Source: Bdellovibrionota bacterium (GTDB lineage Bacteria > Bdellovibrionota_C > UBA2361 > OMII01). Taken from it: a stretch of 64,000 nucleotides of DNA. Below the pieces are notes generated by a model. That model had not been told where the DNA came from. It saw only the letters and a list, made by a program, of their open reading frames with translations, and did not search any database. The position numbers and the translations under genes were made by a program. Shown here in pieces: positions 3,608-31,807 of the stretch. Every line of letters starts with the position of its first letter. Positions within the stretch are counted from its first letter, which is position 1. Location: contig JBIKWQ010000007.1 of NCBI GenBank assembly GCA_044356215.1, positions 77-64,076 on the forward strand, given 5' to 3'.

Positions 3608-3958
3608 ATGGACGAGGTTAGCTGTGGTTTTTTGGGTGAGTTAGATCAGGATTTTTCGCAGATATTTGGGGCGCCAAATATGACCGGCACTCCGGAGCGG
3701 CGTCTCCTTCTGGCGATTCTAGAGCGCGCGATCCTGGACTATGTTGGCAATAATCCGCGCGAGGTGCAGGAAGCGGAGGAATGGCTGTTCGAGCCACACT
3801 CCAACGGCTCCCGCTCACAGTTTTCTTTTGGCTGGTTGTGTGAACAGCTAGATCTCGACCCCACAAAGGTTTCTAAACGCGTTAAATCGATGCCTAGGCG
3901 TGGAAATCGCAAGATAGCTCCGTGGTACTTCGCCAAGGAGGAGCTGGCAGTAGCGTAA
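3608..3958 (+). CDS. hypothetical protein (116 aa)
   Basis: ORF only, with no recognisable domain. Confidence 0.35.
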   Translation: MDEVSCGFLGELDQDFSQIFGAPNMTGTPERRLLLAILERAILDYVGNNPREVQEAEEWLFEPHSNGSRSQFSFGWLCEQLDLDPTKVSKRVKSMPRRGNRKIAPWYFAKEELAVA

Positions 3959-3988
3959 GGGAAGTTTGGCCGCTTTTCGCTCGAGTTC

Positions 3989-4630
3989 CTAATGAAAGTA
4001 ACGGGCGCCGATTCTAGGTGAGTAGGCGCCAATTGAGCGAGAGGCGGTGTAGTCGTTAAGCTTCCACATCTCACCCATCAGGAGCCTGGACGCGAAATTG
4101 CCAACCTCACCTTTGTCTTGGCCTCGCCGCTGTCCGATCTCACGTGAGACAAAAGTAGCGAAGCTAAAGCGGCGGATCGCTTTTGTACGTGGTAAGAAAT
4201 AAAGCGTGCTCGCTATTCCCGCTAAAAAAGTGATCGCCAGCAACGCCGGCATAAAAGCCGTTGTTAAATCCCCGAGCCAAACGGCGATAGCTCCGCAAAG
4301 AGCTAAAGCTAGCACCGCGAGGATGGCCCTGCCACCCCAACAGGTTTTGGGCTTCTTTATAAATAGGCTCTCATCACTCACTCCTAGATCAAGGAGGTCA
4401 TCGAGATAAGTCTCAAGCACCTCTACCGGAACGAAAGCGACGGCGGCAGCGAAATTGCGTAGACTACGTTGGCTTGGTATTAGAGGGGCGCACGCGCCGG
4501 CCTCGTAGGAAAGAAGGCCTCGACCAATCATGCGATATTGTTCGAGCAAACGGTTGCAACCACCAAAAGGATGGTCGTGCGAAGAGCTTTTAACGGACTT
4601 AGCGAGCTTCATGAGACGATCAGACCACAT
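3989..4630 (-). CDS. hypothetical membrane protein (two predicted TM helices)
   Basis: Hydrophobic stretches ILAVLALALCGAIAVWL and LLAITFLAGIASTLYFL. Confidence 0.4.
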   Translation of the reverse strand: MWSDRLMKLAKSVKSSSHDHPFGGCNRLLEQYRMIGRGLLSYEAGACAPLIPSQRSLRNFAAAVAFVPVEVLETYLDDLLDLGVSDESLFIKKPKTCWGGRAILAVLALALCGAIAVWLGDLTTAFMPALLAITFLAGIASTLYFLPRTKAIRRFSFATFVSREIGQRRGQDKGEVGNFASRLLMGEMWKLNDYTASRSIGAYSPRIGARYFH

Positions 4631-4865
4631 AGCTCGTCCCCAGACAACTGGCCGCGTCAGCTAGCCTACCGTCTTCCACCGTTTTTCACTGGCACTGGCA
4701 CCGGCTTAAGACCTAAAAGTGCCGCTATTAAGGCTTCAAATATATTAAAGATATTCGTCATGCGCGGACGGCTCCTTAAAACCCTCTTACGATCATTATA
4801 CTAATATAGATGATCGGCGCGCCGTAAAAATTCCTTAAATCTCTGTAAAAAATCAGCCCTGTCAG

Positions 4866-4891
4866 ATAACCACCTGAAAATAGGTGGTTAT
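4866..4891 (-). terminator. stem-loop immediately after the fumC stop (8-bp stem AACCACCT/AGGTGGTT), with a T-run about 17 nt downstream on the minus strand
   Basis: Inverted repeat read directly from the sequence. The U-tract is not adjacent to the stem, so terminator function is uncertain. Confidence 0.3.
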
Positions 4892-4892
4892 A

Positions 4893-6284
4893 CTATAAGC
4901 CTGGGCGAGTCATCGACATAAGATCTAGCAATCTCTCTAGCTCAGCCTCCGGAAGGAGCTTCATCTCGCGGGCCACCTGCCGAACGGTCTTATCCTCCTT
5001 CATGGCGCGTTTGGCTAACTCCGCGGCCTTGTCGTAACCGATCTTTGGAGCTAACGATGTAACTGTCGCCAGACTCTTCTCCGCTAGGTCTAGACAACGC
5101 TCCTCATTTGCTGTGATTCCAGATACGCATTTACGGTTAAAGTTTCTCCCCGTATTAGCCAACAGCTCGATCGCTTCCAGTAAGTTGTACGCTAATGCCG
5201 GCATCATGACGTTAAGCTCAAAGTTTCCGTGCTGTCCACATACGGCGATGGTTGTATCGTTCCCCATCACATGAGCGCACGCCATCATCACTGATTCACA
5301 TATCACCGGATTAACCTTTGCTGGCATGATACTTGAGCCAGGTTGAATCTCTGGAAGATAGATCTCTCCCACTGCACAGCGCGGTCCCGAAGAGAGCCAA
5401 CGCACATCATTAGCGATCTTCATCAAAGAAACAGCGACCGTCCGTAATTGGCCACTAACTTCAACCGCGACATCCTGCGTGGCTTGCGCCTCAAAGTGAT
5501 TCTCCGCCTCGTAGAAATTATGCCCAGTAGCGGAGGAGATGTGCTTAATCGCAGTAGCGGCGAACTCAGGATGAGTGTTAAGACCCGTACCTACAGCTGT
5601 GCCACCCAAGGCCAATCCAAGCAATCCCTTGGCCGCGCCACGAATACGCTCTATTCCATGCTTAATCTGTGATGCGTAACCACCGAACTCTTGTCCTAAC
5701 GTGATCGGCGTCGCATCTTGCAAGTGCGTACGTCCAGTCTTAAGGACATTAGCGAACTCCTTGCTCTTGGCCGCCAAGGTATCGTGCAACTCTTGTAGCG
5801 CGGGTATGAGAGCTTCGGCGATTCCTTGATATGCTGAGATGTGAATCGCTGTTGGAATCACATCATTTGATGATTGGCAGTTATTTACGTGGTCGTTTGG
5901 ATGAATAAATCCGCGCTCCCCTTTCCCCTTCCCTAAAATCTCGAGTGCTCGATTAGCTATCACCTCGTTAGCATTCATATTTGTCGATGTGCCAGATCCT
6001 GTCTGAAACACATCCACGACGAAATGCTTAAAGAGCGCGCCATCAACAACCTCTTGCGCGGCCTTAACGATCGCCTCACCACGCTCAGCGTCTAAGAGAC
6101 CGATCGCCATATTAGCTTTAGCCGCCGACTGTTTGATCGTACCTACCGCGCTGATGAAACTTTGTGGCAGACGGAGTGGCGACACCTCAAAATTTAGCAC
6201 TGCTCGCTGCGTTGACGCGCCCCAAAGAGCGTCCGCTGGAACCTCCATCTCTCCCATTGAGTCACGTTCAATTCTAGTTGCCAT
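4893..6284 (-). CDS. fumC: class II fumarate hydratase
   Basis: Full-length FumC/aspartase-family similarity, including the GSSxMPxKxN signature (GSSIMPAKVNP). Start trimmed to MATRIERDSMGEM, which has a GAGGG Shine-Dalgarno upstream. Confidence 0.9.
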   Translation of the reverse strand: MATRIERDSMGEMEVPADALWGASTQRAVLNFEVSPLRLPQSFISAVGTIKQSAAKANMAIGLLDAERGEAIVKAAQEVVDGALFKHFVVDVFQTGSGTSTNMNANEVIANRALEILGKGKGERGFIHPNDHVNNCQSSNDVIPTAIHISAYQGIAEALIPALQELHDTLAAKSKEFANVLKTGRTHLQDATPITLGQEFGGYASQIKHGIERIRGAAKGLLGLALGGTAVGTGLNTHPEFAATAIKHISSATGHNFYEAENHFEAQATQDVAVEVSGQLRTVAVSLMKIANDVRWLSSGPRCAVGEIYLPEIQPGSSIMPAKVNPVICESVMMACAHVMGNDTTIAVCGQHGNFELNVMMPALAYNLLEAIELLANTGRNFNRKCVSGITANEERCLDLAEKSLATVTSLAPKIGYDKAAELAKRAMKEDKTVRQVAREMKLLPEAELERLLDLMSMTRPGL

Positions 6285-11691: not shown

Positions 11692-12999
11692 TTAATCCCT
11701 CTCAGGAATAGCTACCCCGCTCTCTCGTAAGATCTCCTCAAAGATCTTCTCGATAGCATCAGGTGTGGGTCTCTCAACTCGTCTGCCGTTGATCCAGATA
11801 GACGGTGTTGATCTTAAACCAAGAGCATCGGCCTCTTTAATCTCACCTTTTATTTTATCTAGGTGGCGGTGTGAGCTGACACACTCTCTCAATCCCTCAA
11901 GATCCAATCCGATCGCGCTAGAGGCCCCCGATAAAAGCTGATCTCTACCGTCATTTACTACTGGCTTTATCTCTTCCCGTTTTGGATCCAACTCCAAGAC
12001 CGGATCTGTGAATGCGTAATCGACCGCCTCCCAAAATTTCCCCTGCTCCCCTGCGCACCGGATGAAATTAGCCGCGAAACAGGAGTTCTCGTGAAATTTC
12101 GATGTAATGCCGGCATTACACTCCGCGTCGAGAGGATAGTTTTTAAATACAAAACCGTACTGACCTTTAAACCGCTCTAAGATCGGAGTGAGCGCTGAAT
12201 AGAACATGCGGCACCCAGGGCACTCAAAATCCGCGAACTCCACAACCTGAACTGGGGCGGACGCGTCTCCCTTTAAATAATCACCAAATACCCCTTGATT
12301 CGCCGCTATTGGAATCTGAACAACATCCTGTTCAATCCACGCTTTCACCGGATCTGTCACAGCCAGAGGCACATTCTCACCGTCACCTCGATTAATCAAC
12401 GCGATCTCTCGGGCTATAATCGGCGATAACACGGAGAGCACGCCCCAAATCACTAAACTGATCGCTCCTGCTATAGCCTCTTTACGACCTTTAAATAAAC
12501 TAGTCACAAAAGAAGAGAGTTCATGGATTCCGCGTGCCAGATTATCAAAAAAACTCGTCCCCGATCCCGACCAACTAACCGCCAGCAGCGCGAAGGTAAC
12601 CAGGTAAAGCGCCATGCACATCAGACAGAGCGCCCCTATAATGAACTCCGAGATCGCAAACAACGCTATCGAAGCCAGCGAGCCAAGCGCTGCGCCTAGG
12701 AATACAACTCGATTAGCGCGTTCATCGGATAATCCACGATTTGGACCCGCGACAGCCAGAAGTCCAAGTATCGCGATGTAAAAGAATAATCCGTAGGAAG
12801 CGATCGGAAGGCCGAAGATTAACGACCAATCGCTGGCGTTCACGGCCTCGCAGTTTATGTGTTGTGAGAGATTGCAGAAGCTGGGCCCAGTAGCCAGACC
12901 CGCTCTGAAAATGACATGCTCATAAAGCGCCAAAGCTGATACCAGCGATCCTACAATCGCCAGTACAACTGTTAACAACTTTCTCTTGTCCTGCGACAT
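11692..12999 (-). CDS. vitamin K epoxide reductase (VKOR) domain fused to a DsbA-like thioredoxin domain
   Basis: Multi-TM N-terminal domain with a CxxC (CNLSQHINC). C-terminal thioredoxin-fold domain with CPGC. Confidence 0.75.
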   Translation of the reverse strand: MSQDKRKLLTVVLAIVGSLVSALALYEHVIFRAGLATGPSFCNLSQHINCEAVNASDWSLIFGLPIASYGLFFYIAILGLLAVAGPNRGLSDERANRVVFLGAALGSLASIALFAISEFIIGALCLMCMALYLVTFALLAVSWSGSGTSFFDNLARGIHELSSFVTSLFKGRKEAIAGAISLVIWGVLSVLSPIIAREIALINRGDGENVPLAVTDPVKAWIEQDVVQIPIAANQGVFGDYLKGDASAPVQVVEFADFECPGCRMFYSALTPILERFKGQYGFVFKNYPLDAECNAGITSKFHENSCFAANFIRCAGEQGKFWEAVDYAFTDPVLELDPKREEIKPVVNDGRDQLLSGASSAIGLDLEGLRECVSSHRHLDKIKGEIKEADALGLRSTPSIWINGRRVERPTPDAIEKIFEEILRESGVAIPERD

Positions 13000-18594: not shown

Positions 18595-19519
18595 GCGTCT
18601 TACGTCGCACGTGGTAAGCGCAGTTCTTTGAGCATGTTCGCCTGTCCTCCTGCTCCGCGCAGCGGTGGCATACGGGGGCCTCCTTACCACACAGCGAACA
18701 AGAGAGATGATCCTTTGATGGATTACCGCAGTGTGGGCAGAGTTTATAGGTCGTAGTTGGCTTTAACTCCTGGTCAACAGCAACACGGTGATCGAATACA
18801 AAGCACTCACCCTTAAAGTATCCGTTTGGAAACTCCTCGATATATTTTAGTATTCCGCCCTGTAGCTGGTATACGTTGTCGTATCCCAACCTCTTTACCT
18901 CTGGCACAGCTTTCTCACACCGAATCCCGCCGGTGCAGTAAAGAAAGAGCTTCTTGTCTTTTGGAAGCCCTTTCTTCTCAACATAATCACCGAAATCACT
19001 AAACTTGCGGATGCGCGGATCAATAGCGCCTTCAAACACGCCGATATCTGTCTCGTAATCATTACGGGTATCGACTAAAACCACATCTGGATCGTTTGAC
19101 AGCGCCTCGTGCCACTCCTTGGGCGTTAGATAAGTTCCCATAGACTCAGTAGATGATATCGATTGGTCACCTATCGTGACGATCTCAGGTCGCAAGTCGA
19201 CCTTAAGCCTGGCAAACGGCGCCCTCTCGGCGATTGAGTGTTTAAAAGTAAAAGCGCCTCCTGGGAAGATCTCTGGCAGCAGCGCCTCAAAACTCTCTAT
19301 CGTCTCGGCGCTCCCAGCTACTGTTGCGTTAATCCCCTCGCTCCCTAAAACGATAAGCCCTTTAAGCCCACTTGAATCAGCGAAACTAATCAGCCTCTCA
19401 CGTATCGCCGACAAACTATCGGGCTTTACCTTTATAAAATGATAGAACGCTGAAACAACTACATCACTACTCGCGCTCATAACACTCACCTTGCACCGCG
19501 GATTAATAAGCCTTAGCAA
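18560..19519 (-). CDS. trhO: rhodanese-domain tRNA U34 hydroxylase TrhO/YceA family, with a C-terminal Cys-rich extension
   Basis: UPF0176 N-terminal domain, rhodanese active-site CTGGIRCEKA, and a C-terminal CxxC...CxxC segment. Confidence 0.75.
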   Translation of the reverse strand: MLRLINPRCKVSVMSASSDVVVSAFYHFIKVKPDSLSAIRERLISFADSSGLKGLIVLGSEGINATVAGSAETIESFEALLPEIFPGGAFTFKHSIAERAPFARLKVDLRPEIVTIGDQSISSTESMGTYLTPKEWHEALSNDPDVVLVDTRNDYETDIGVFEGAIDPRIRKFSDFGDYVEKKGLPKDKKLFLYCTGGIRCEKAVPEVKRLGYDNVYQLQGGILKYIEEFPNGYFKGECFVFDHRVAVDQELKPTTTYKLCPHCGNPSKDHLSCSLCGKEAPVCHRCAEQEDRRTCSKNCAYHVRRKTLKQPTPEANQR

Positions 19520-21038
19520 AGATCGCGTCGCGTGTCGCCCGACGACCGGTTACTACACAACGCCCCTCAGTTCCACTTTGCTCAAGCGGTAAACACCTCA
19601 CCGTAACTTTTAATTCAGAGAGCTTATCGAGAGCGTCAGCTCCCCCAGCCCATTTAGCTAACACAAATCCTCCATGGATCTCAGGCTTCGATTCGCTCTT
19701 AGGGGTAAAGAACGCTTTAAACTGCTCAAAATCAACGATATCCCGTCTGATATTACGATTAAGAAAGCTCTTGGCCTGCTCAAAGTAGTTACGTTGAATA
19801 TCCGCTAATGTCGAATCAATCTCATTTATAAGCTGATCTACAGGTAAAAACGCTTTATCGCGTGGTCCCTGGTCTCTTCGATAGAGCACCGCTTGCCGTG
19901 ATTCGATATCCCGCGGACCAACCTCTATCCGAACTGGGATACCCTTCTTAATCCACTCCCAACTCTTATCACCACCACGGATATCACGCTTATCTACTAC
20001 TACCTCGATTGGCACACCCTCATAAGATCTCTCACGCAACGCAGACGCTATCTCTTGAGCGTACGCTAGCACCGCGGCTTCGGTCTCTGGCTTAGGTATA
20101 ACAGGGATAATTACAATGTGCTTTGGGGCGACCTTTGGAGGCAAACGCAGTCCATCATCGTCGCTATGAGTCATGATCATTCCACCGATTAAGCGAGTGG
20201 ATACTCCCCACGATGTTGTGTAAGCAAACTCAGTTGCACCCTGTTGATTTAAGAAAGATATATTTGAGGCCTTAGCGAAGTTCTGCCCCAAATAGTGTGA
20301 TGTTCCAGCCTGCAGAGCCTTCATATCCTGCATCATCGCCTCGATACAGTAAGTATCAACAGCTCCTGGGAAACGCTCCTCTGGGATCTTCTCTCCCTTG
20401 ATAACCGGAATCGCCAGATAGTTCTCAACTAGATCGGCGTACACATTAAGCATAGTAAAGGTCTCTTCGATCGCCTCCTTCTCTGTAGCGTGCGCTGTGT
20501 GACCCTCTTGCCAGAGAAACTCTGTGGTTCTTAAAAATATTCTAGTGCGCATCTCCCAGCGCACAACGTTGGCCCACTGATTAATCAGAAGCGGAAGGTC
20601 ACGATAAGACTGCACCCAGCGCGCGAACGACTCTCCGATAATCGTCTCTGATGTTGGACGTACAACTACGGGCTCCTCAAGTTCACCTGATGGAACAAGC
20701 TTGCCATCACGAGCCTCAAGGCGGTGATGAGTTACCACCGCGCACTCCTTAGCGAACCCCTCAACGTGCGCCGCCTCCTTCTCAAGAAAACTTAGCGGAA
20801 TAAAGAGCGGAAAGTAGGCGTTACTGTGGCCGGTAGCTTTAATCATCCGATCGAGGTGGCGTTGAATATTCTCCCAGATCCCATAACCCCAAGGCTTAAT
20901 AACCATACAGCCGCGCACCACGGACATCTCGGCGATATCTGAAGCCTTGATTACCTGCTGATACCATTCAGGATAATCCTCAGCCCGGCGAGGCGATATA
21001 GCGGCTGTTTCCTTCTTGTTAGCGGCGTTTGTGCTCAT
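19503..21038 (-). CDS. proS: prolyl-tRNA synthetase, archaeal/eukaryotic type
   Basis: Class II aaRS motifs with an archaeal-type ProRS N-terminus (SVVRGCMVIKPWGYGIWE) and C-terminal Zn-binding domain. Start trimmed to MSTNAANKK, confirmed by CAT at 21036-21038. Confidence 0.9.
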   Translation of the reverse strand: MSTNAANKKETAAISPRRAEDYPEWYQQVIKASDIAEMSVVRGCMVIKPWGYGIWENIQRHLDRMIKATGHSNAYFPLFIPLSFLEKEAAHVEGFAKECAVVTHHRLEARDGKLVPSGELEEPVVVRPTSETIIGESFARWVQSYRDLPLLINQWANVVRWEMRTRIFLRTTEFLWQEGHTAHATEKEAIEETFTMLNVYADLVENYLAIPVIKGEKIPEERFPGAVDTYCIEAMMQDMKALQAGTSHYLGQNFAKASNISFLNQQGATEFAYTTSWGVSTRLIGGMIMTHSDDDGLRLPPKVAPKHIVIIPVIPKPETEAAVLAYAQEIASALRERSYEGVPIEVVVDKRDIRGGDKSWEWIKKGIPVRIEVGPRDIESRQAVLYRRDQGPRDKAFLPVDQLINEIDSTLADIQRNYFEQAKSFLNRNIRRDIVDFEQFKAFFTPKSESKPEIHGGFVLAKWAGGADALDKLSELKVTVRCLPLEQSGTEGRCVVTGRRATRDAIFAKAY

Positions 21039-21138
21039 AGCGAGGTCCTTGTTGTGGGGGCTGGATGTAGCCCATATACGGAATGTATCACCTTGGCGGG
21101 GGGGGAGTAAACTTGGGGCTGCAGGATGCGGGTAATAC

Positions 21139-22128
21139 TCAGGCCAACGCCCCCCGCGGGTACCCACGCACCAGCAAATACCTCAGTATCGGTATCGGCT
21201 GCACTGACAAGATCTCCTCTCGAAACTTCTGATACAATCGATTAGCGAGCTCCGATACGTCCTGCGCGCTCTCCAACTCTACCCCAATTTCGTAATCCCA
21301 GGGACCGACACACCTTAAACCAAAAAGCACATCGCGCTCGCTCTCGAGATAACTGAAGAGACGTTGCGAGAATTTACTCGGTACACCACGGACGTTTACG
21401 CGGAAGATATAACAAGTCCGACCCAACTTAGTCGGATCGATCCAGTGAATGTATGCCTTTATTATCTCGTTTTCCTTTAGCTCGCGGCGACGACGGTCGG
21501 CGGTCGCTGGTGGGATACCCAAAGCTTTTGATAGCTGCACCGCGGTTTGAGCCTCTCCCGTGGCTAAAAGAGATAACACCCTCTCCGAAGCTTTATCGAG
21601 GGTTGATACCTCTTCTTGAACATTAAACTCTAGGATCGGTGTCTTAAAACGTTTAGGTAAAAGGTATCGTCTTCCGAAGTATCGGAATTCAAACTGACTG
21701 CACGCCGCTATCTCCACTAGAGAGCCACCCAGGGTACGCCCAAGAAGATCGATAAACTGGGGGAGATGCGCCGCGCAACGAATCGAGATCGAGACCGCGA
21801 ATTGATACCTTCCCGCCATCTCAAAGAGCCAAAAGACGTGAGGAAGCGCAGCCACCTTTTGCACCAGACTTACTGTATCCGCGTCCTGTTTCGCCGCGAC
21901 TGAGAAGAAAACAGTGTGATGCGAATATCCAAGACGATGCAGGTCAATCATCGCTTGACGCTGGTACATGACCTTACGCTCTTTTAAAGACGAGAGCGCG
22001 TATTGGATCGTAGTTTGTTTAAACCCAGAGAGTCGCGCGATCTCTTGAATAGTTAAGTCGCCCTGCAGCTCTACTAAGCCCAAAATTATCTTCTGCTTCT
22101 CACTCAGTCGTACGCGCACGGATGACAA
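21139..22128 (-). CDS. tandem-duplicated AsnC/Lrp-family transcriptional regulator (two HTH + RAM modules in one 329-aa polypeptide)
   Basis: Two successive AsnC-type HTH segments (LSEKQKIILGLVELQGDLTIQEIARLSG... and LDKASERVLSLLATGEAQTAVQLSKALG...), each followed by a RAM-like domain. Divergently transcribed from the aromatic-catabolism cluster. Confidence 0.65.
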   Translation of the reverse strand: MSSVRVRLSEKQKIILGLVELQGDLTIQEIARLSGFKQTTIQYALSSLKERKVMYQRQAMIDLHRLGYSHHTVFFSVAAKQDADTVSLVQKVAALPHVFWLFEMAGRYQFAVSISIRCAAHLPQFIDLLGRTLGGSLVEIAACSQFEFRYFGRRYLLPKRFKTPILEFNVQEEVSTLDKASERVLSLLATGEAQTAVQLSKALGIPPATADRRRRELKENEIIKAYIHWIDPTKLGRTCYIFRVNVRGVPSKFSQRLFSYLESERDVLFGLRCVGPWDYEIGVELESAQDVSELANRLYQKFREEILSVQPIPILRYLLVRGYPRGALA

Positions 22129-22183: not shown

Positions 22184-23164
22184 ATGAAAACTGGTGAATT
22201 TCTTTTTTTATTGTTTTTTACTCACTCTGGCAATCATGGCAATAGGGCCAGACACACAATGATGGAGTCAAAAATGGGAAACACAACAATGGATGGAAAC
22301 GAACCTAACAAGGGAAACCACAACAACCGTTTTCCTCGGAATACGCGCGGCAATGACGCCGGCATCGGAAATGACGATACCGGGGTGCCGCCGCTTGACG
22401 GACAGTCTATGTCTCTAGCGCCTCGGCGCGGACCAATCGAGACGGTGGTCTTCACCTTCGCGATGCCTCAGGAGGCTCAAAGGTGGGTACAGGCGCTAAA
22501 CCTAACGCCTTACGAATCGCCACGTAACCCTGGCATGAACGAGCAGTATAAAAGTAAGATCGGCGCTGTTAACGTAGTTGTCAGTATAAACCAATTCAAT
22601 TTGAAACATGGCGTAGCTGGCGTTGGGACTAGCAACTCAGTTCTTAATGCGTTTTGCGCGATTAATGAGTTCAAGCCTAGCCTTCTAGTTAACGCTGGAA
22701 CTGCTGGCGGATTCGGCGACTCCGGCGGTGTCATTGGAGATATCTATCTTACCAAAGGAACTGTTATGTACCACGATCGGCACATCAAATTGGGAAACTA
22801 TGAGGAGTACGGTAATGGCGGATACTCGTGCCTCTCGTTACGCCGCCTACCTAAGATCCTTTCAGCCAAGACCGGAGTATTCTCAACGGGCAACTCACTT
22901 GATTATACGCACGCCGACATGAGTCGCATAATCGATTCAGATGCTCTAGTGAAGGACATGGAAGCGGCTGCTTTCGCGGAGATCGCCGAGCAGTTCAATG
23001 TCCCCTTCATCGGAATAAAATCGATCTCGGATCTAGTTGATGGAAATAAACCAACACCCGATCAGTTCCAAGATAATTTCGGCTTAGCGACACGCAACCT
23101 GCATGGTGCCCTGACGAAGTTTGTAAGGTTCCTGGCTAATGGGAGGCGTTTGGAGGATCTTTAA
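22184..23164 (+). CDS. MTA/SAH nucleosidase-like protein (PNP_UDP_1 fold). The longest ORF has an Asn/Gly-rich N-terminal extension of about 75 aa; the real start may be at 22409.
   Basis: MtnN-like motifs: LVNAGTAGGF, and DMEAAAFAEIAEQFNVPFIGIKSISDLVDG. The upstream 225 nt is A-rich and low-complexity. An in-frame ATG at 22409 would give a 251-aa MTAN-sized product. Confidence 0.7.
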   Translation: MKTGEFLFLLFFTHSGNHGNRARHTMMESKMGNTTMDGNEPNKGNHNNRFPRNTRGNDAGIGNDDTGVPPLDGQSMSLAPRRGPIETVVFTFAMPQEAQRWVQALNLTPYESPRNPGMNEQYKSKIGAVNVVVSINQFNLKHGVAGVGTSNSVLNAFCAINEFKPSLLVNAGTAGGFGDSGGVIGDIYLTKGTVMYHDRHIKLGNYEEYGNGGYSCLSLRRLPKILSAKTGVFSTGNSLDYTHADMSRIIDSDALVKDMEAAAFAEIAEQFNVPFIGIKSISDLVDGNKPTPDQFQDNFGLATRNLHGALTKFVRFLANGRRLEDL

Positions 23165-23169
23165 GAACT

Positions 23170-23204
23170 CGAGGCAAACTCCGCCTCGCGTGGGGTTTGC
23201 CTCG
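23170..23204 (+). terminator. perfect 10-bp stem-loop (CGAGGCAAAC...GTTTGCCTCG, 15-nt loop) 6 nt after the MTAN-like stop. No U-tract follows.
   Basis: Inverted repeat read directly. May separate the MTAN-like gene from the downstream fahA operon, or be regulatory. Confidence 0.35.
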
Positions 23205-23288
23205 TTCCTGAATAGAATTGCCGCCTGGAGAAGATTGGAGTACCTTGTTAGTCTAGCGATCAAAGAGCTCAGTTTATAGGTTTGTCGT

Positions 23289-24236
23289 ATGACTGGATCG
23301 GTTAAGTCACCAACATTGTCTTTAGCTGTTAAGGCACTCTTTGAAAGCCTGATCGACTACGCGGGGGTCTTCCCTCCGGCCTCCTTGGAACTTAAAGTCG
23401 CTGTTGATAATTATTTAGCCTATCGGGATCGCGAGTATTCATGGGTGCTCTCAAGATTACTCGCCACAGCGCCGCAGATTTGCGAGTTACCATCTTTAAT
23501 TCCGGACAATCTTGGGAATCCGATCCCTCTATCTCTTATCACCAAAACACCCGCTGAGGATCTCCACAAAATAGAGAAAGCTTTATTAGCTCTTAGACAC
23601 AGAGTTACTCTAGCTAGTATCGAAGTCACTCTTAATTGCAATGAAGACTTGTCAGAACAAATCAACCAAGTAACTCATTCAGTAGCATCGTTAGCGACCG
23701 AGAATACCAGGCCCTTCATTTATTTTGAGGTCATTTACGGAGACGAGTGGAAAAACCGTGTAAGGCGCCTTTTGGCGGAGTTGCGGCTGGCCTCTACCAC
23801 CAGCCTTAACAGCACCGGCTTCAAGCTGCGATGCGGTGGACTTCCCCAATCTTTTCCTACTCCGAGTGACATAGCCTTCGCGCTACACGAAACAGCGTCT
23901 AGCCAAATGCCAATTAAATTTACAGCTGGGCTCCATCATCCCTTCTATCGGCGAGCCCTTAATGGCGTAGTAGAGGAGACCTCCCACGGCTATTTCAATG
24001 TATTTTTCGCGGCGCTTATGGCTCACACAAGAGGGTGCTCATTATCTTATCTAGAGCGAGTCATCACCGAGTCCACCTCGACTCCGGCGGTTTCTAACGA
24101 TCGTATTATGTGGCTTGATTCCTCTATATCAGCTGAAGAGATTAGAAATACAAGGGCTACGCGAGTGATCTCATTTGGAAGCTGTAGCTTCGATGAGCCG
24201 ATTCTCGACGCAGTTCAAAATGGATGGTTAAGATAG
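23289..24236 (+). CDS. conserved hypothetical protein (315 aa) co-oriented with and 10 bp upstream of fahA
   Basis: ORF with no recognisable motifs. Tightly linked to the fahA-hppD operon. Confidence 0.5.
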   Translation: MTGSVKSPTLSLAVKALFESLIDYAGVFPPASLELKVAVDNYLAYRDREYSWVLSRLLATAPQICELPSLIPDNLGNPIPLSLITKTPAEDLHKIEKALLALRHRVTLASIEVTLNCNEDLSEQINQVTHSVASLATENTRPFIYFEVIYGDEWKNRVRRLLAELRLASTTSLNSTGFKLRCGGLPQSFPTPSDIAFALHETASSQMPIKFTAGLHHPFYRRALNGVVEETSHGYFNVFFAALMAHTRGCSLSYLERVITESTSTPAVSNDRIMWLDSSISAEEIRNTRATRVISFGSCSFDEPILDAVQNGWLR

Positions 24237-24246
24237 GATTACTACC

Positions 24247-25512
24247 ATGAGAAAGTCATTTATAGACGTTAGCTCCAACTGTCACTTCCCGATTCAGAAC
24301 CTTCCATACGGGTCTTTCTCACGCCAAGGAGAACCGCGCCGGATTGGAGTGGCCATCGGTGATTACGTCCTAGACTTAGCGTTCCTCCAAAGAGAGGGCT
24401 TGATCGAAGGTGGCTATTTTCAGAGCGCGGTTCTTAACCCTTTTTTAAGAATGGGGAAAAATGTGTGGTCTAAAAGTCGCCTCGCGATCCAAGAACTTCT
24501 CGACGCTGGCAACCCTACCATTAGAGATAACCCCAGGCTGCGAGAAAAGGCACTTATCTCTAGAGACTCAATCACTACGCATCTCCCGGTGGAAATCGGT
24601 GACTACACCGACTTTTATTCTTCTAAAGAACACGCGAGTAATGTTGGAGCGATGTTTCGAGATCCACTGAATCCCCTTTTGCCGAACTGGACGCATCTTC
24701 CAGTTGCCTATCACGGCCGCTCCAGCTCCATAGTTATCACAGGGACTCCGATTCGCCGCCCCTGCGGCCAAACCAAGCCTGAAACTCAATCACTACCCAA
24801 CTTTGGACCGTCCCGTTTTATGGATTTTGAGTTAGAAGTCGGCTGTATTGTTGGAGCCGGCAACGAATTGGGAGAGCCAATCCCGATCTCGCAAGCCTCT
24901 GAGCATATCTTCGGGATGGTACTCGTGAATGACTGGAGCGCTCGAGATATTCAGAGCTGGGAGTACGTGCCTTTAGGCCCATTTCTTGGCAAAAATCTGG
25001 GGACGTCGATATCTCCTTGGGTTGTTCCACTGGAGGCTCTAAACTCTTTCAGAGTTGATGGCCCTACTCAAGATCCCCCCCCCCTTCCCTATCTCCGTTC
25101 AAATGGTCCCTGGGCATTCGACATAGCGCTTGAGGTTCAACTAAGGACACCCAAAATGGATCATGCCGCGACCATATCATCGGTCAACTTTAGTACACTT
25201 TACTGGAACATCTGTCAGCAGATATCTCATCACACCTCAAATGGATGCAACCTAAGACCCGGAGATCTTCTGGCATCAGGGACAGTTAGCGGAAAAACAC
25301 CCACATCATACGGATCTATGTTAGAATTAACCTGGCGGGGAGCCAATCCAATTACGCTCCCATCAGGAGAGCAGCGTTCGTCTCTCCAAGACGGGGATAA
25401 AGTGATAATGACAGGTGCCGCGCGGGGAGACGGGTACACAGTTGGATTTGGAGAGGTGGAAGGAACGATATTGCCAGCGCTAGTAGATCCAGCGCTGGTG
25501 GTGAGTCGATAG
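24247..25512 (+). CDS. fahA: fumarylacetoacetase
   Basis: Full-length FAH similarity across N- and C-terminal domains. 421 aa. Confidence 0.85.
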   Translation: MRKSFIDVSSNCHFPIQNLPYGSFSRQGEPRRIGVAIGDYVLDLAFLQREGLIEGGYFQSAVLNPFLRMGKNVWSKSRLAIQELLDAGNPTIRDNPRLREKALISRDSITTHLPVEIGDYTDFYSSKEHASNVGAMFRDPLNPLLPNWTHLPVAYHGRSSSIVITGTPIRRPCGQTKPETQSLPNFGPSRFMDFELEVGCIVGAGNELGEPIPISQASEHIFGMVLVNDWSARDIQSWEYVPLGPFLGKNLGTSISPWVVPLEALNSFRVDGPTQDPPPLPYLRSNGPWAFDIALEVQLRTPKMDHAATISSVNFSTLYWNICQQISHHTSNGCNLRPGDLLASGTVSGKTPTSYGSMLELTWRGANPITLPSGEQRSSLQDGDKVIMTGAARGDGYTVGFGEVEGTILPALVDPALVVSR

Positions 25513-25525
25513 ATCGGGGGTATGT

Positions 25526-26596
25526 ATGGATAATCCTCTAGGCATAAAAAGATTTGGCCCAATCACGATGTATGTTCAGGATGCTCAAGCCGAAGCCGAG
25601 CGTCTTTCCAAGATTCTCGGCATGTCGATCTCATACATTCCATCTGGAAATGATAAAGTATTCGGAATTCAATCCAAAGATGTGCTCTTCATTATTGATA
25701 GCTCGCCACGTTGCGCAGCTCTGGCGGCGCGATATGGAAATCACGTCGCCGAGATCGGAATCCGGGTGCGCGACAGTAAAGAGGCCTTAAACATCGCTTC
25801 AAAGAGGACCGCGCAGCCGTGTCGACTCTGTCATGAAACTGGAGTTGGATATCTTCGTTCTCCGCACGATGGCGAGATATATTTCCGATTTATCGAGGAT
25901 GACCAAAAACCCTACTTAGGACTGGCCCCTAATCCATCAGCATCCGCAGTTATCAGGAGCTCGTTTTCCCGAATTGATCACATCGTTGTAAACACTCAAA
26001 AAATCCTCCCAGTTGTGGAATTCATGCGGGATGTATTCGGCATGCGAAAAGTAAATGAATTTACGATCAAGGTCGAAAACGAGGATTTCATGGCATCTCT
26101 TTACAGCGAAGTAATGGGACTTTACGGCACTGAGCACCCTGTGCTCTTTCCGATTAATGAGCCTCTGGCGGGAGATAACGTATCACAGATCCCAGCCCAA
26201 CTGCGCGAGGTAGGGAGAAGCCACGCTCAGCATATCGCTCTTCTCACTGAATCCATCATCGAGTCTATCGCGTCTTTGAGACAACATGGCATGGGGTTCC
26301 TCGAGTTTAGGAACGCTGAGCATGCGGCGTCTTACTATCGAAGTGTTCCAGGTCGATTGGGTAATATCGAAGTTCATGAAGCTATCGAGAAATTGAGGGA
26401 TTTGGGGATACTTGTCGATAAATGCGGTCAGGGTTACCTTTTACAGCTTTTCTCAAAAAGAATTTTTCCTGATAGGAGCGTTCCATTTATTGAGATAATA
26501 CAGAGAGCCAGCGATGTTCTTGGCTGTTTTGGAGACGGCAATTTCGCCGCCTTGGCCGAAGCGCTCGAGCACTCCATGCGTTCTGAAGACCATTAG
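25526..26596 (+). CDS. hppD: 4-hydroxyphenylpyruvate dioxygenase
   Basis: HPPD C-terminal signature QLFSKRIFPDRSVPFIEIIQR...GCFGDGNFAALAEALE. 356 aa. Confidence 0.85.
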   Translation: MDNPLGIKRFGPITMYVQDAQAEAERLSKILGMSISYIPSGNDKVFGIQSKDVLFIIDSSPRCAALAARYGNHVAEIGIRVRDSKEALNIASKRTAQPCRLCHETGVGYLRSPHDGEIYFRFIEDDQKPYLGLAPNPSASAVIRSSFSRIDHIVVNTQKILPVVEFMRDVFGMRKVNEFTIKVENEDFMASLYSEVMGLYGTEHPVLFPINEPLAGDNVSQIPAQLREVGRSHAQHIALLTESIIESIASLRQHGMGFLEFRNAEHAASYYRSVPGRLGNIEVHEAIEKLRDLGILVDKCGQGYLLQLFSKRIFPDRSVPFIEIIQRASDVLGCFGDGNFAALAEALEHSMRSEDH

Positions 26597-26880
26597 GGAT
26601 GCGTCTAAAACTGCGATGTTTAGCACGCCTCCGCTTGGTGATTGACGGGGAAATGGCCGCTTTAGACACACTGCTCCTATGAAGCGAGCAGAACCCGCCT
26701 CTTCAAGTAAAGACTGGATAGCATGCAGAGGATGTTCAGGTGCAGAGAGTTCTTTTTAATTCCCCTAGAAACCGCTCTCTGCGTGTAATCTTACTCTTCG
26801 ATGCTCAGTTAAGTTTAAGCGAATGTTCTCTGCGTCATGCCACAGATAGTATCAGCTTCCGGCAACAGCACCATCTACCT

Positions 26881-26902
26881 AAACGGCGCGAACGCGCCGT
26901 TT
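26881..26902. promoter_or_regulatory. perfect GC-rich palindrome AAACGGCGCG-AA-CGCGCCGTTT in the convergent hppD/hmgA intergenic region
   Basis: 10-bp perfect arms with a 2-nt spacer. No adjacent U-tract on either strand. Could be an operator or a Rho-independent-like hairpin. Confidence 0.3.
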
Positions 26903-26942
26903 CTAACAAAACATCGCGTAAGCGAGGTTTTGCCGGCCTTCC

Positions 26943-28268
26943 TTAGGGATTTAGGTTGAACATCCTTGGTAATCCCGCCCAGCAGTTTCGATAGTCACTT
27001 TGTAGCGCCACGCTCTGGGCCGCGTACTTTGTTAGCCGCTGTGGGAACCTGCTCTCAAACATAAAAGCTAAGGAGTTAGCTAGCTTCTTTGGCATGAGTT
27101 CCTCTGATGTCGCTTTTAAAAACGCGCTCGCGTCAGGTCCATGAGGAAGCATGCAATTATGAAGGCTTACCCCTCCGGGGACAAATCCATCCGGTTTGGC
27201 GTCGTACTGGCCGTAGATCAGCCCCATGAACTCGGACATGATATTCATATGAAACCAAGGAGGCCTGAACGTGCGCTCCGCGACCTGCCAACGATCAGAG
27301 AATATAACAAAATCGATATTCGCTGTTCCCTCTTCTCCCGAGGGCGCGGTAAGAACCGTGAAGATCGATGGATCAGGATGATCAAACAGGAGGGCGCCGA
27401 CCGGTGAAAAAGTACGAAGGTCGTATTTGTAGGGCGCGTAATTACCATGCCAAGCCACAACATCGAGGGGTGAGTGCGAGATCTCTGCGCGATAAAACCT
27501 CCCACACCATTTTACGGTAAGGCCACAGCTACCCGCTCTATCCTCAAAAGCCGCTACTGGTGTCTTAAAATCTCGGGCATTAGCCAAACAATTCGCCCCT
27601 ATCGGCCCTCTATTTGGCAGTGTGAACTTGCCTCCATAATTCTCACACAGATACCCGCGAGACCGCTCGCTATTTAACTCAACAGCGAATTTAACCCCTC
27701 TCGGGATGACGGCGATCTCGGCCGGTGTTAAATCAATAATTCCAAATTCGGTGCGGAAACGGAGATTCCCCTCTTGAGGAACTATCAGCATCTCGGCGTC
27801 AGCGTTGTAAAAATAATCGTCAACCATCGAAGAGTTTACGAAGTAGAGGCTCGCTGCCATTCCGGTTTGCGTGTTGACATCACCGGCGATGGTCATCGTG
27901 CGGATACCGGTTATAAAGTTAGTCGATTCCGAAGGCGGCGCGGGCGGATTCCAACGATACTGCGCTATAGAAACATCAGCGTCCTCGAATTCCGGCGCTG
28001 TTTTCCAGAATGGCATCGAGCACGAAACGAAATTACCAGAATGACAAACAGATGGAGAGATCCGATATAGCCAGGACCTTTCATTTAATCCCCGTGGCGC
28101 GGTGAATGGCGATCCAGACAGTTGCTCAGCGTAAAGACCATAGGCGCACCTCTGAGGTGAATTCTGTCCTTGGGGAAGGGCCCCAGGTAAGGCTTCCGTC
28201 TCAAAATCATTACCGAAACCTGTCATGTAAGATGGAGGCTCTAGCTTGGTCATACAGCTCCTATTCAT
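26943..28268 (-). CDS. hmgA: homogentisate 1,2-dioxygenase
   Basis: Full-length HGO similarity. 441 aa. Confidence 0.9.
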
Positions 28269-28399: not shown

Positions 28400-30394
28400 T
28401 TATCCCAACTTCATGACAATAACGGCTCGCGCCTGATTCTCAAAAAAATCCAAACTCGCCGGGTTACTCAGGGCGGCTCGATTACCAGGCTCTTTACCGG
28501 CAAGTATACGTTTAACTGGTATCTCAGCAAGCTTATTGTTGGCTGTTCTAGGAAGCTCGGGGGCCTGCAGCACTAAAGCAGGCACGTAGAATCGATTCGC
28601 GCGCCCTAATCGGTCGACTATAGTTGATTCAATTACACTGTTGAGCTGGCACCCCCCGCGCAGAACAACAAAGAGAATTAGTAGTTCGATTGCTTCGTTC
28701 GGTGGCGTGTAACCTACAACCATGGACTCTTCTAAGGCGGGGATCGCCGACAGTGCGCTGTATATGTCAGATGTCGCGATTCGAACGCCACCCGGCTTTA
28801 ACGTCGCGTCAGATCTCCCCCGAAAGAAAAGGGCGCCATCGCCACGCTCCTCGACGACATCACCATGTCTCCAGACGGACGGGTACTGATCATAATAAGC
28901 GGATCTGTAAAGAGTACCATTATCGTCGTCTAGAAATTTTATTGGCATCGAAGGGGCTGGTGCCACGCACACTAATTCGCCCTCTTGATCGATGACAGAT
29001 TTTCCACCGGAGTCGTACACCCGCACATCGTATCCAAGGCTCTTGCACTGAATTGCTCCACGAATTACGGGTTTAAGTGGACAACCTAACGCGAAGCATC
29101 CGAGTATATCAGTCCCCCCGGAGATGCTCTGAATCCACAGTCTTTTTATATTCATGAGCACGTAATCAAATTGCCTTGGAAAAAGCGTTGAGCCGGTGGA
29201 GAGAACGGCTCGCAATGAATTCAAGTTAAAGCGCGAGTTGGGCTTCACGCCCCTTTTCTCAACTGCGTTCAAGTAGGCGGCGCTTGTTCCAAAATGAGTA
29301 ACCCGCTCCTCGTCCGCCATGCGCCACATAATATTTCCATCCTCTCGCATCGGATCGCCATCATACAGAGCTAGGGTCGCCTGACATCCGAGCCCACTCG
29401 CGAGCCAATTCCACATCATCCAGCTCGTCGATGTTTGATACTGCACGACATCACCGGCTCGTACATCGCTATGTAACGTCATCTCCTTCATATGTTCGAG
29501 CAATGTCCCTCCGGCGGAATGAATTATTGCCTTCGGCTCTCCGGTAGTTCCCGATGAAAACATGATGTAAAGCGGGTGTGAGAAGGGGAAACGCTTAAAC
29601 GAGATTGGTAGCGTCGGCGGAGAAGAAACTATTTGCCGGTAATCAAACACAAAATCACGCGACTCGGCTATTGCGCCGGCACGGGCCCCTCCTCCGAGAT
29701 AATCGACCAAAATCACATACTCGATACTTGGCGCTGCTCGAATTAATTCCTCGATTAAGGAATCCACGCGGATCTCCTCGCCTCGCCACAAGTATGACGC
29801 GCAAGCAATCAGGACTTTGGGACGAACTCTCTTTATCCTTGAGATAAGCCCATCAAACTGAAACTCGGTTCCACAGCTAGACCAAGTGGCTCCTAAAGAC
29901 GAGGCCGCCAGCATAGCTGCGATCGCCTCTGGGATATTGGGTAAATACCCAAAAAGTTTATCGCCAGGCTCGATCCCAAAGCTAATCAGCGCTTTCCTCA
30001 ATCCAGCGACGTGTTGGTGTAGGTCATCCCATGAAAATACTCTTCTAATTTGGCTCTCGCTCCATGAAACGATAGCCGGTTCGGGGCCCATTTTGCGCAA
30101 AAGATTCTCGCAGAAATTGAGCCTCAAATTGGGGAACCAAGCGCGGGCCAGCGGGACATCGATCTCAGAGGCTTGAAAGATGGGAGATAAGCTGCCATCC
30201 GAAATTACTCCGAGAAATTCAACTAAATCACCCCAAAACCTATCCGGCTCTCGCACCGACCAATCATAAAGCGCTTCATAATCCGGGAATTTGCCGTGCC
30301 CCCGCTCCTCCATAGCTCGCATGAACTTATAAAGCTCGCATCGCGAAATTGATTCAGCCGAGGGGGTCCAAACAATCTCGTCCGCTGTCGTCAT
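28400..30394 (-). CDS. acetoacetyl-CoA synthetase (acetoacetate-CoA ligase)
   Basis: Adenylate-forming enzyme family with the acetoacetyl-CoA synthetase N-terminal region. 664 aa. Lies upstream of hmgA on the same strand. Confidence 0.8.
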   Translation of the reverse strand: MTTADEIVWTPSAESISRCELYKFMRAMEERGHGKFPDYEALYDWSVREPDRFWGDLVEFLGVISDGSLSPIFQASEIDVPLARAWFPNLRLNFCENLLRKMGPEPAIVSWSESQIRRVFSWDDLHQHVAGLRKALISFGIEPGDKLFGYLPNIPEAIAAMLAASSLGATWSSCGTEFQFDGLISRIKRVRPKVLIACASYLWRGEEIRVDSLIEELIRAAPSIEYVILVDYLGGGARAGAIAESRDFVFDYRQIVSSPPTLPISFKRFPFSHPLYIMFSSGTTGEPKAIIHSAGGTLLEHMKEMTLHSDVRAGDVVQYQTSTSWMMWNWLASGLGCQATLALYDGDPMREDGNIMWRMADEERVTHFGTSAAYLNAVEKRGVKPNSRFNLNSLRAVLSTGSTLFPRQFDYVLMNIKRLWIQSISGGTDILGCFALGCPLKPVIRGAIQCKSLGYDVRVYDSGGKSVIDQEGELVCVAPAPSMPIKFLDDDNGTLYRSAYYDQYPSVWRHGDVVEERGDGALFFRGRSDATLKPGGVRIATSDIYSALSAIPALEESMVVGYTPPNEAIELLILFVVLRGGCQLNSVIESTIVDRLGRANRFYVPALVLQAPELPRTANNKLAEIPVKRILAGKEPGNRAALSNPASLDFFENQARAVIVMKLG

Positions 30395-30571: not shown

Positions 30572-31456
30572 ATGGAGGAATCTATGGGCCATGCGGTCCT
30601 CGAGGCGCGGACCGTTGAAGAGTGCGTGATTGAACAGAAATGGGAGGAGTATACCTCTGAGGACCATAACACTTGGAGGACCCTTTATTCGCGGCAGATA
30701 AACCTCCTGAAAGATAAAGTATGCGAGGAATACTTAGAGGGTTTGAGAGTGCTACAGCTCGGAGCGGAGGAAGTTCCGGATTATCATCGGATGAACAAAC
30801 ACCTGCGAGCCGCGACTGGCTGGGAGGTGCTAGCGGTACCGGGACTTATCGCTTCAAAACCGTTCTTTACCATGCTCGCTAACAGGCAGTTCCCAGCGGG
30901 AACTTTCATTCGCGCACCCGCGCAGCTCGACTATCTCGAAGAACCAGATATCTTTCACGATGTCTTCGGCCATGTTCCCCTTCTGACTAATCCCGCTTAC
31001 GCTTCATACATGCAGGAGTATGGGAAAGCCGGATTAGATGCTCTCAATCATAAAGGGATTAAGTTTTTAGCTCGCCTTAACTGGTACACGATAGAATTTG
31101 GTCTAATCCGCCGAAACGGGGAGTTTAAGATATACGGCGCTGGAATTATTAGCTCCTTCGGTGAGACAAAATATGTAATCAATGATCCATCCCCAAATTT
31201 CGCTCTATTTGATTTTGAGCGGGTTCTTCGCACTGGCTATTATATCGATGACTTTCAGTCTACATACTTTGTAATTGACGATTTCAACACGCTCTTTGAA
31301 GAGATCGCTAAACAGCCCCTTATTCCACTATTTCAGGAATGCCGAGATAAACCGCCCCTTTCTCCCTTTCGCTTTAGTGACACCGACTGCGTGCTTCGCC
31401 GCGGCACCGAGGAATATACAAGGGATTTTCCAAGGATAAAAACCAAGCTTAAATAA
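30572..31456 (+). CDS. phhA: phenylalanine 4-hydroxylase
   Basis: Aromatic amino-acid hydroxylase catalytic-domain similarity (HDVFGHVPLL, iron ligands). 294 aa. Confidence 0.85.
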   Translation: MEESMGHAVLEARTVEECVIEQKWEEYTSEDHNTWRTLYSRQINLLKDKVCEEYLEGLRVLQLGAEEVPDYHRMNKHLRAATGWEVLAVPGLIASKPFFTMLANRQFPAGTFIRAPAQLDYLEEPDIFHDVFGHVPLLTNPAYASYMQEYGKAGLDALNHKGIKFLARLNWYTIEFGLIRRNGEFKIYGAGIISSFGETKYVINDPSPNFALFDFERVLRTGYYIDDFQSTYFVIDDFNTLFEEIAKQPLIPLFQECRDKPPLSPFRFSDTDCVLRRGTEEYTRDFPRIKTKLK

Positions 31457-31462
31457 TTTGCT

Positions 31463-31807
31463 ATGACTCAACTATTTGACAGGACCTGTATCGATCTTCC
31501 ATCCGGAACTCCACCCCTTGCCGCCAAGGAGATCGAATTGCTCAGAATCGAGATCCCAGATTGGGAGAACCTCGGCGACCAACGAATACGCAGAGTGTTC
31601 GCTTTTAAATCTTATATAGCGGGAGCGGACTGGGCGCGAAATATCGCTGTGATCGCTGAGAATGAGAACCACCATCCCGAGATTCGAATTTTATGGCGTA
31701 AAGTCGTAGTGGAGCTGTGGACGCACACAGTAAAAGGATTAAGTGAAAACGACTTTATCCTCGCAGCTAAATTTGATCGCAATTACTTATATTTTACAAA
31801 ACCCTAG
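31463..31807 (+). CDS. phhB: pterin-4-alpha-carbinolamine dehydratase
   Basis: PCD signature E-x3-HHP (ENENHHPEI). 114 aa. Immediately downstream of phhA. Confidence 0.85.
   Translation: MTQLFDRTCIDLPSGTPPLAAKEIELLRIEIPDWENLGDQRIRRVFAFKSYIAGADWARNIAVIAENENHHPEIRILWRKVVVELWTHTVKGLSENDFILAAKFDRNYLYFTKP

Follow-up and report, generated by a model that had tools for sequence, protein, structure and literature searches.

The DNA analysed in this study, hereafter the window, is a stretch of 64,000 nucleotides from a Bdellovibrionota bacterium (assembly GCA_044356215.1, contig JBIKWQ010000007.1, positions 77 to 64,076 of the forward strand). It carries an island of phenylalanine and tyrosine degradation genes in which an uncharacterised open reading frame (ORF) of 315 aa, starting with ATG (23289..24236, + strand), directly precedes fahA, the fumarylacetoacetase gene (24247..25512, +). 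Gene context, predicted fold and residue conservation make it rather probable that this ORF and its family encode a maleylacetoacetate isomerase that is not homologous to the glutathione S-transferase (GST)-type enzyme MaiA and replaces it. A more specific proposal is evenly balanced in our judgement, namely that the ORF represents a previously unrecognised TIM-barrel family of glutathione-independent isomerases using a cysteine of their own, that it is the gene behind an activity described in Bacillus in 1976 and that it closes the homogentisate pathway.

The homogentisate route is the main aerobic breakdown pathway of phenylalanine and tyrosine. Bacillota, Actinomycetota, Chloroflexota and archaea are generally devoid of glutathione, and many prokaryotes without glutathione nevertheless possess hmgA and fahA, which leaves a hole in pathway reconstructions. 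The sole known maleylacetoacetate isomerase is a glutathione-dependent protein of the GST-zeta type (PMC10950700; PMC9338888), and no gene for this enzyme was identifiable in B. anthracis (PMC4457819). A glutathione-independent isomerase from a Bacillus strain is attributed to Crawford 1976 by PMC9338888, although that work is described somewhat differently in PMC4457819 and PMC9338888. In the literature searched as full text, including all papers from 2021-2026 mentioning maleylacetoacetate isomerase, neither a non-GST enzyme nor an account of the present family was found, and the GapMind carbon-source paper did not address the maleylacetoacetate isomerase step. The reaction and the pathway are known already; the protein family, its fold for the isomerase step and a probable cofactor independence would be new if confirmed.

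The main argument was provided by gene context. One genome per species was scanned with the family's own motifs, which yielded 80 reference loci from more than 12 phyla. Placement of fahA was scored by tblastn, and 74 of these loci were informative, i.e. they displayed enough downstream sequence. In 67 of the 74, fahA occurred immediately downstream and on the same strand, with a median spacer of 22 bp (30 bp or less in 38 loci, overlapping stop and start codons in 13); in one more it was 3 kb distant. A lack of conserved synteny with hmgA/fahA had been named in the first-pass annotation as a refutation of its proposal; synteny with fahA held, however, across many bacterial phyla as well as in marine archaea. 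It was also observed at greater sequence distance, since a Streptomyces homolog with 27% identity was located just upstream of fahA, and it did not depend on the way of sampling: when loci were picked through FahA similarity, the family gene preceded fahA in three out of four. The relative locus L085 kept the whole layout of the window's island, even though its family protein is only 35% identical.

Family loci were broadly distributed. Bacterial occurrences were recorded in Ignavibacteria, Balneolia/Rhodothermia, Chloroflexota, Planctomycetota, Acidobacteriota, Calditrichota, Desulfobacterota, Vulcanimicrobiota, Eisenbacteria, Marinimicrobia and Cyanobacteria, and in numerous Bacillota (Paenibacillus, Niallia, Metabacillus, Neobacillus, Halalkalibacter, Alteribacillus, Aneurinibacillus, Ureibacillus and Sporosarcina). 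Archaeal ones came from Poseidoniia/Marine Group III and from one Heimdallarchaeota metagenome-assembled genome (MAG). Once all neighbours within 6 kb of the family loci were clustered, the only recurring genes were fahA, hmgA and hppD, and nothing GST-like recurred.

Three gene orders were prominent. The pair alone, family-fahA, was encountered at 45 loci where hppD, hmgA and acetoacetate-handling genes were not nearby. Eight loci displayed hppD-family-fahA-hmgA and nine displayed hmgA-family-fahA, among which phhA-hppD-hmgA-family-fahA in an acidobacterial MAG (L078) and hppD-hmgA-family-fahA in marine archaea (L035). The order of these nine is colinear with the reactions, so that the family gene occupies the slot of the step leading from HmgA to FahA.

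A particularly compact arrangement was found on Priestia megaterium plasmids, where hppD is followed by the family gene (annotated as 'hypothetical' and overlapping fahA by 4 bp), fahA, a HisC-type aminotransferase gene, hmgA and an amino-acid permease gene. In this operon isomerisation is the sole step from tyrosine to fumarate plus acetoacetate without a gene, and the family member the sole gene without a step. Peribacillus asahii likewise displayed family-fahA-hmgA with a 4-bp overlap. In the plasmid collection, FahA was detected in 295 records, against 18 for the family; these 18 comprised all six FahA-bearing Priestia records, 11 of the 15 from Streptomyces and one from a cyanobacterium.

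In Proteobacteria the slot beside fahA is occupied by GST-type maiA: Sphingobium displayed phhA-hppD-hmgA-fahA-maiA, the last two genes overlapping by 4 bp, and Acinetobacter displayed fahA-maiA. The ten leading genera for GST MaiA matches in the plasmid collection were all Proteobacteria. The first-pass annotation had noticed neither a GST-zeta maiA nor a tyrosine aminotransferase gene on the island, and for the 64-kb window this was borne out: tblastn with an Acinetobacter MaiA probe gave a best E value of 1.6, and Pfam scans of 20 further window ORFs (~190-490 aa) revealed no GST and no aminotransferase. The same probe had no match in about 90 family-bearing loci totalling more than 1 Mb.

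The family is large, undescribed in Pfam, NCBIfam and PDB sequences, and spans bacteria and archaea. No Pfam or NCBIfam model matched the ORF protein at E<=0.01, and no PDB sequence was matched, whether a single sequence or a 50-sequence profile was used. A permissive Pfam scan (E<=5) of 50 family members gave no consistent model; a weak match to DUF7249 (E 0.004) in three of the 50 was treated as noise. A first search returned 1,604 homologs at E<=1e-3, of ~300-345 aa and 'hypothetical' wherever named; with so many homologs and a best distinct match at 1.5e-60, the ORF cannot have arisen by chance. An exhaustive profile search of 1.84 billion representatives, clustered at 50% identity, extended the family to 5,670 clusters at E<=1e-3, of which 2,724 at E<=1e-30, and all members were single-domain proteins of ~300-350 aa.

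At the structural level, the first-pass annotation could recognise no known fold and had suggested structure prediction followed by a fold search. The AlphaFold2 model, built on the 50-sequence alignment, displayed a mean pLDDT of 93.5 and a pTM of 0.91, and is confidently predicted to be a (beta/alpha)8 TIM barrel. It consists of eight strand-helix units (strands 22-24, 54-59, 79-85, 106-115, 143-148, 176-180, 209-211 and 293-298, each followed by a helix) with a beta-hairpin inserted at residues 272-281. Resemblance to solved structures remained at the level of fold only. The leading Foldseek matches in the PDB were all TIM barrels, and weak ones: first the class I aldolase DERA (deoxyribose-phosphate aldolase; 3ng3_D, E 2.4e-4, TM 0.40/0.54, 13% identity), then homocitrate synthase, HMG-CoA lyase and methylisocitrate lyase, which are enolate-stabilising metallo-barrels.

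Membership in the DERA family, suggested by these matches and by motifs GFKLRCGG and KFTAGLHH, was considered and rejected. Like DERA, the present family is predicted to be a (beta/alpha)8 barrel carrying lysines on strands 6 and 7, yet the two differ by a root-mean-square deviation of 5-6 A and share 10-16% identity, and the present proteins are ~90 residues longer, with the additional hairpin 272-281 and an invariant cysteine after strand 8. An hhalign comparison of the family alignment with E. coli DeoC, whose probe sequence agreed with annotated deoC at 98.5% identity, yielded a probability of 0.4% (E 0.14, 21 columns), and Pfam DeoC matched neither the ORF protein nor any of the 50 members. 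The resemblance thus concerns the fold and does not extend to family membership.

Conservation was examined in an alignment of 204 sequences including the Streptomyces branch of 27% identity. Twelve residues were strictly invariant, i.e. E112, K179, R181, P190, K210, T212, G214, H216, G234, R289, G297 and C299, and D23 was kept in 203 of the 204. Residues D23, E112, E147, K179, K210 and C299 are located in or just after predicted strands 1, 4, 5, 6, 7 and 8, respectively, so that the conserved Asp, Glu, Lys, Arg and His residues and the single invariant cysteine would line the C-terminal strand ends, which form the catalytic face of a TIM barrel. Judging from barrel topology alone, Cys299 and the other invariant residues would cluster in one pocket. 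Another cysteine, C182, had attracted attention as a catalytic residue of the isocitrate-lyase-like 'K-x-R-C-G' type, but it was discarded because it is Thr in many members.

The first-pass annotation had hedged between a non-GST isomerase and an accessory factor of the homogentisate pathway. Synteny with fahA supported this wording, and the confidently predicted barrel with invariant polar residues at its putative catalytic face favours the isomerase, catalysis being what we infer. The ORF protein would convert maleylacetoacetate, the product of HmgA, into fumarylacetoacetate, the substrate of FahA. The thiolate of Cys299 would take the part played in MaiA by the thiol of glutathione and add to C2 of the enone; the C2-C3 bond, now single, would rotate, and elimination of the thiolate would release the trans isomer. 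Residues K179, R181, K210 and R289 may bind the carboxylates and stabilise the enolate, and D23, E112, E147, H216 and H233 may serve in acid/base catalysis or possibly coordinate a divalent metal.

With such a built-in nucleophile no low-molecular-weight thiol would be needed, and the spread of the family over lineages with different thiols or none would be explained. The enzyme is probably independent of any thiol cofactor: its presence in bacillithiol, mycothiol, glutathione and thiol-less lineages argues for independence from a particular one. As for the organism itself, a disulfide oxidoreductase of the window (49482-50909, - strand) was considered as glutathione reductase and rejected, since it is the soluble transhydrogenase SthA (NF003585, 640 bits) and is therefore uninformative on the thiol in use. 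The window also encodes a 435-aa disulfide-bond formation protein (11692-12999, -), a fusion of a VKOR domain with a thioredoxin/DsbA-like domain.

Comparison with known isomerases set the family apart. It shares with GST-zeta MaiA (also HmgC or GSTZ1, EC 5.2.1.2) the proposed reaction, the tight genomic coupling with fahA and hmgA, and the proposed chemistry of thiolate addition to an enone, rotation and elimination. MaiA, however, displays the GST fold (a thioredoxin-like N-terminal and a helical C-terminal domain) in ~213 aa, in contrast to a predicted TIM barrel in ~315 aa, and no GST Pfam model matched the ORF protein (E<=0.01) or any of the 50 members (E<=5). MaiA requires glutathione, whereas the present family has its own invariant cysteine and occurs in lineages with other thiols. 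Finally, maiA is located downstream of fahA and the family gene upstream.

Maleate cis-trans isomerase, from the Asp/Glu racemase superfamily, is a cofactor-independent C=C isomerase in which an enzyme cysteine is the nucleophile. Its mechanism resembles the one proposed for Cys299, but the likeness is mechanistic only. It displays the Asp/Glu racemase fold, two catalytic cysteines, another substrate and no known association with fahA, whereas the present family is predicted to be a TIM barrel with one invariant cysteine (C299), C182 often being Thr. The DinB/MDMPI maleylpyruvate isomerases, dependent on mycothiol or L-cysteine, are the gentisate-pathway counterpart in Gram-positive bacteria without glutathione. 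They differ from the predicted barrel by their DinB four-helix bundle, by the use of an external thiol and by acting on maleylpyruvate, and the DinB and MDMPI models of Pfam (MDMPI_N, DinB_2) matched neither the ORF protein nor the 50 members. A gene of this type by name ('maleylpyruvate isomerase N-terminal domain-containing protein') was found on Streptomyces plasmid NZ_CP109514.1 (locus L084, 2283-2939, - strand), where it precedes family-fahA at a distance of 4 kb. Its product might serve as another isomerase, dependent on mycothiol, or have no connection with the pathway.

Several observations weigh against an isomerase function. No fahA was within reach at six of the 74 informative loci (L028, L037, L049, L058, L069 and L073); in the Heimdallarchaeota MAG (L058, 6795-10012) the flanks were instead a gene of the mandelate racemase/muconate-lactonising-enzyme family and a glycosyltransferase gene. 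Conversely, some fahA loci (L089, L096 and L097) had no family gene and no maiA in the surrounding 4-5 kb. They are organised as fahA-hmgA or hmgA-fahA (L089 4001-6578; L096 and L097 ~3625-6220; an NCBI MAG, Cupriavidus and Ralstonia), and the isomerase of these genomes is presumably encoded elsewhere. A canonical maiA may exist in the Bdellovibrionota genome beyond the 64-kb window. The family also occurred in cyanobacteria (Moorena, Kovacikia) and in MAGs labelled Pseudomonadota; since cyanobacteria produce glutathione, its absence is not the whole explanation for the family's distribution. To our knowledge, there is no precedent for a C=C cis-trans isomerase of this type built on a TIM barrel, and the paired lysines (K179 on beta6 and K210 on the adjacent beta7), together with the weak DERA fold matches, would also fit Schiff-base, aldolase-like chemistry.

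Evolutionary rate belongs to the same side of the balance. Between the window and L085 (10001-10942), the family proteins were 35% identical against 80% for HmgA, 76% for HppD, 73% for PhhA and 67% for FahA, and mean pairwise identity across loci was 37% for the family versus 58% for FahA. Such fast divergence could point to a less essential role. It may alternatively reflect a loosely constrained scaffold, or weaker selection since isomerisation can also run slowly uncatalysed. On the favourable side, FahA itself appeared essentially unchanged. Family-paired FahA, canonical and of the TIGR01266 type, was 54-60% identical to maiA-paired FahA, and 80 of 96 conserved columns were identical and invariant in both groups, with T253S as the sole consistent change, in a comparison with three maiA-paired sequences only. 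FahA thus seems to have remained adapted to the trans substrate.

Among other readings, the one that survived best, though we hold it to be unlikely, is that the protein has another activity towards intermediates or by-products of the pathway. It might be a keto-enol tautomerase with maleyl- or fumarylacetoacetate as substrate, a class I aldolase-like Schiff-base enzyme that cleaves or decarboxylates the beta-diketo acid or acetoacetate, or it might remove reactive compounds such as succinylacetoacetate. Class I aldolases and enolate-stabilising metallo-barrels as best fold matches, the invariant lysines accompanied by invariant acidic residues, and a rapid divergence suiting a less central role would agree with it. 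Yet the established pathway requires no such step, while the isomerase step is required and without a gene, and hhalign showed no relation to DERA. Moreover, pairing with fahA persisted at the 45 loci without nearby hppD, hmgA or acetoacetate-handling genes, and wherever hmgA adjoined the family gene, the latter stood between hmgA and fahA.

A non-catalytic partner of FahA, be it an assembly, stabilising or channelling subunit, would account for the tight and often translationally coupled pairing, for the co-divergence of the two proteins (Pearson r = 0.64 over 65 loci) and, as a fast-evolving scaffold, for the low identities. It also has a precedent of sorts in fungal HmgX of Aspergillus, which is likewise an unannotated protein inside a homogentisate-pathway cluster and is needed for tyrosine use (PMC3203155). 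We consider it improbable, however, as about 12 absolutely invariant polar or glycine residues at the putative catalytic face of a TIM barrel typify an enzyme rather than a scaffold, and as FahA of the same type functions without a family member in Proteobacteria and eukaryotes, which possess maiA in its place. An accessory role resembling that of HmgX was judged unlikely from the published properties of this protein (A. fumigatus AFUA_2G04210), which has ~256 aa, is restricted to Ascomycota, lies beside hppD, is needed for the HppD step and coexists with maiA (PMC3203155). By description, the present family is set apart from it as prokaryotic, ~315 aa long and paired with fahA even at the 45 loci without nearby hppD.

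Isomerisation might alternatively follow hydrolysis, FahA cleaving maleylacetoacetate into maleate and acetoacetate and the ORF protein turning maleate into fumarate. The invariant cysteine would suit the thiol-addition chemistry of maleate isomerase. Moreover, a Bacillus strain forming maleate and acetoacetate from maleylacetoacetate goes back to Crawford 1976, as relayed by PMC4457819 and PMC9338888. Against this stand the canonical character of family-paired FahA described above and the gene order, which places the family before fahA, between hmgA and fahA. In addition, the B. cereus group, with its other FAH-family hydrolase (BAS0227), was absent from the family searches made here, and its hppD-hmgB-hmgA operon contains no unassigned gene. 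This order of events is accordingly quite improbable. That adjacency is functionally meaningless and the ORF an unrelated conserved hypothetical gene is hardly credible: the six loci without nearby fahA and the lack of significant support for the operon in consensus promoter and terminator scans are outweighed by 67 of 74 loci, in many bacterial phyla and archaea, that keep order and orientation at a median spacing of 22 bp, and by the lack of conserved neighbours other than fahA, hmgA and hppD.

Taking the ORF as a candidate isomerase, the remainder of the island can be described. The spacers noticed initially were exact, as 10 bp separate the ORF from fahA and 13 bp separate fahA from the hppD-like gene (25526..26596, +), all three genes being co-oriented. 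Downstream are hmgA, coding for the homogentisate 1,2-dioxygenase that produces maleylacetoacetate (26943..28268, -; TIGR01015, 658 bits), an acetoacetate-CoA ligase gene whose product uses the acetoacetate freed by FahA (28400..30394, -; NF002937, 744 bits; TIGR01217, 656 bits), phhA for phenylalanine 4-monooxygenase (30572..31456, +; TIGR01267, 314 bits) and phhB for pterin-4a-carbinolamine dehydratase (31463..31807, +; Pterin_4a, 89 bits). With FahA itself (TIGR01266, 569 bits for a cut-off of 375; domains FAA_hydrolase_N and FAA_hydrolase), the first-pass names of these five neighbours were all matched by family models. The naming of hppD (4-hydroxyphenylpyruvate dioxygenase) was the weakest call: TIGR01263 was indeed its best model, but with 185 bits under a cut-off of 277, and the protein therefore represents a divergent clade. 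An ortholog with 76% identity occupied the same position in L085.

Upstream of the ORF, a hairpin (23171..23203, +) with a 14-bp perfect stem lies directly 3' of a PNP_UDP_1-family gene ending at 23164. RNA folding of 23160-23215 gave -28.3 kcal/mol (z = -5.9), and none of 200 shuffles was equally stable. The hairpin has no U-tract and was not picked up by the consensus terminator scan; in the window, consensus promoter and terminator scans gave nothing above shuffled background. It probably delimits the transcription unit ORF-fahA-hppD on its 5' side and insulates it from the unrelated upstream gene. In the 346-bp convergent spacer between hppD and hmgA (26597-26942), two stable minus-strand hairpins just past the hmgA stop (z -2.4) are probably terminators.

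Further upstream, a gene for a 329-aa regulator (21139-22128, -) displayed two tandem Lrp/AsnC modules, i.e. a helix-turn-helix and a ligand domain, twice. The 3' end of this gene and the start of proS share 29 bp, and the gene was not conserved beside the island in L085; an Lrp/AsnC regulator also flanks the tyrosine operons of Priestia and Sphingobium. The proS gene (19503-21167, -) codes for a prolyl-tRNA synthetase of the archaeal/eukaryote-like type (TIGR00408, 489 bits), unusual for classical Proteobacteria. The nearest relatives of both FahA and the family protein were from MAGs labelled 'Pseudomonadota/Proteobacteria bacterium'.

If the proposed function is true, the hole in the homogentisate pathway would be closed in Bacillota, Actinomycetota, Chloroflexota, Ignavibacteria, Planctomycetota and marine archaea, and a gene would be found for the Bacillus activity reported in 1976 and never assigned, as cited by PMC9338888. 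Enzymatic C=C cis-trans isomerisation would have been invented independently once more, and the TIM barrel would gain a new catalytic role. The label 'hypothetical protein' would be corrected in thousands of annotations, metabolic models and gap-filling of tyrosine catabolism would be improved, including those for abundant marine archaea and for soil and sediment phyla, and a cofactor-free isomerase would become available for pathway engineering.

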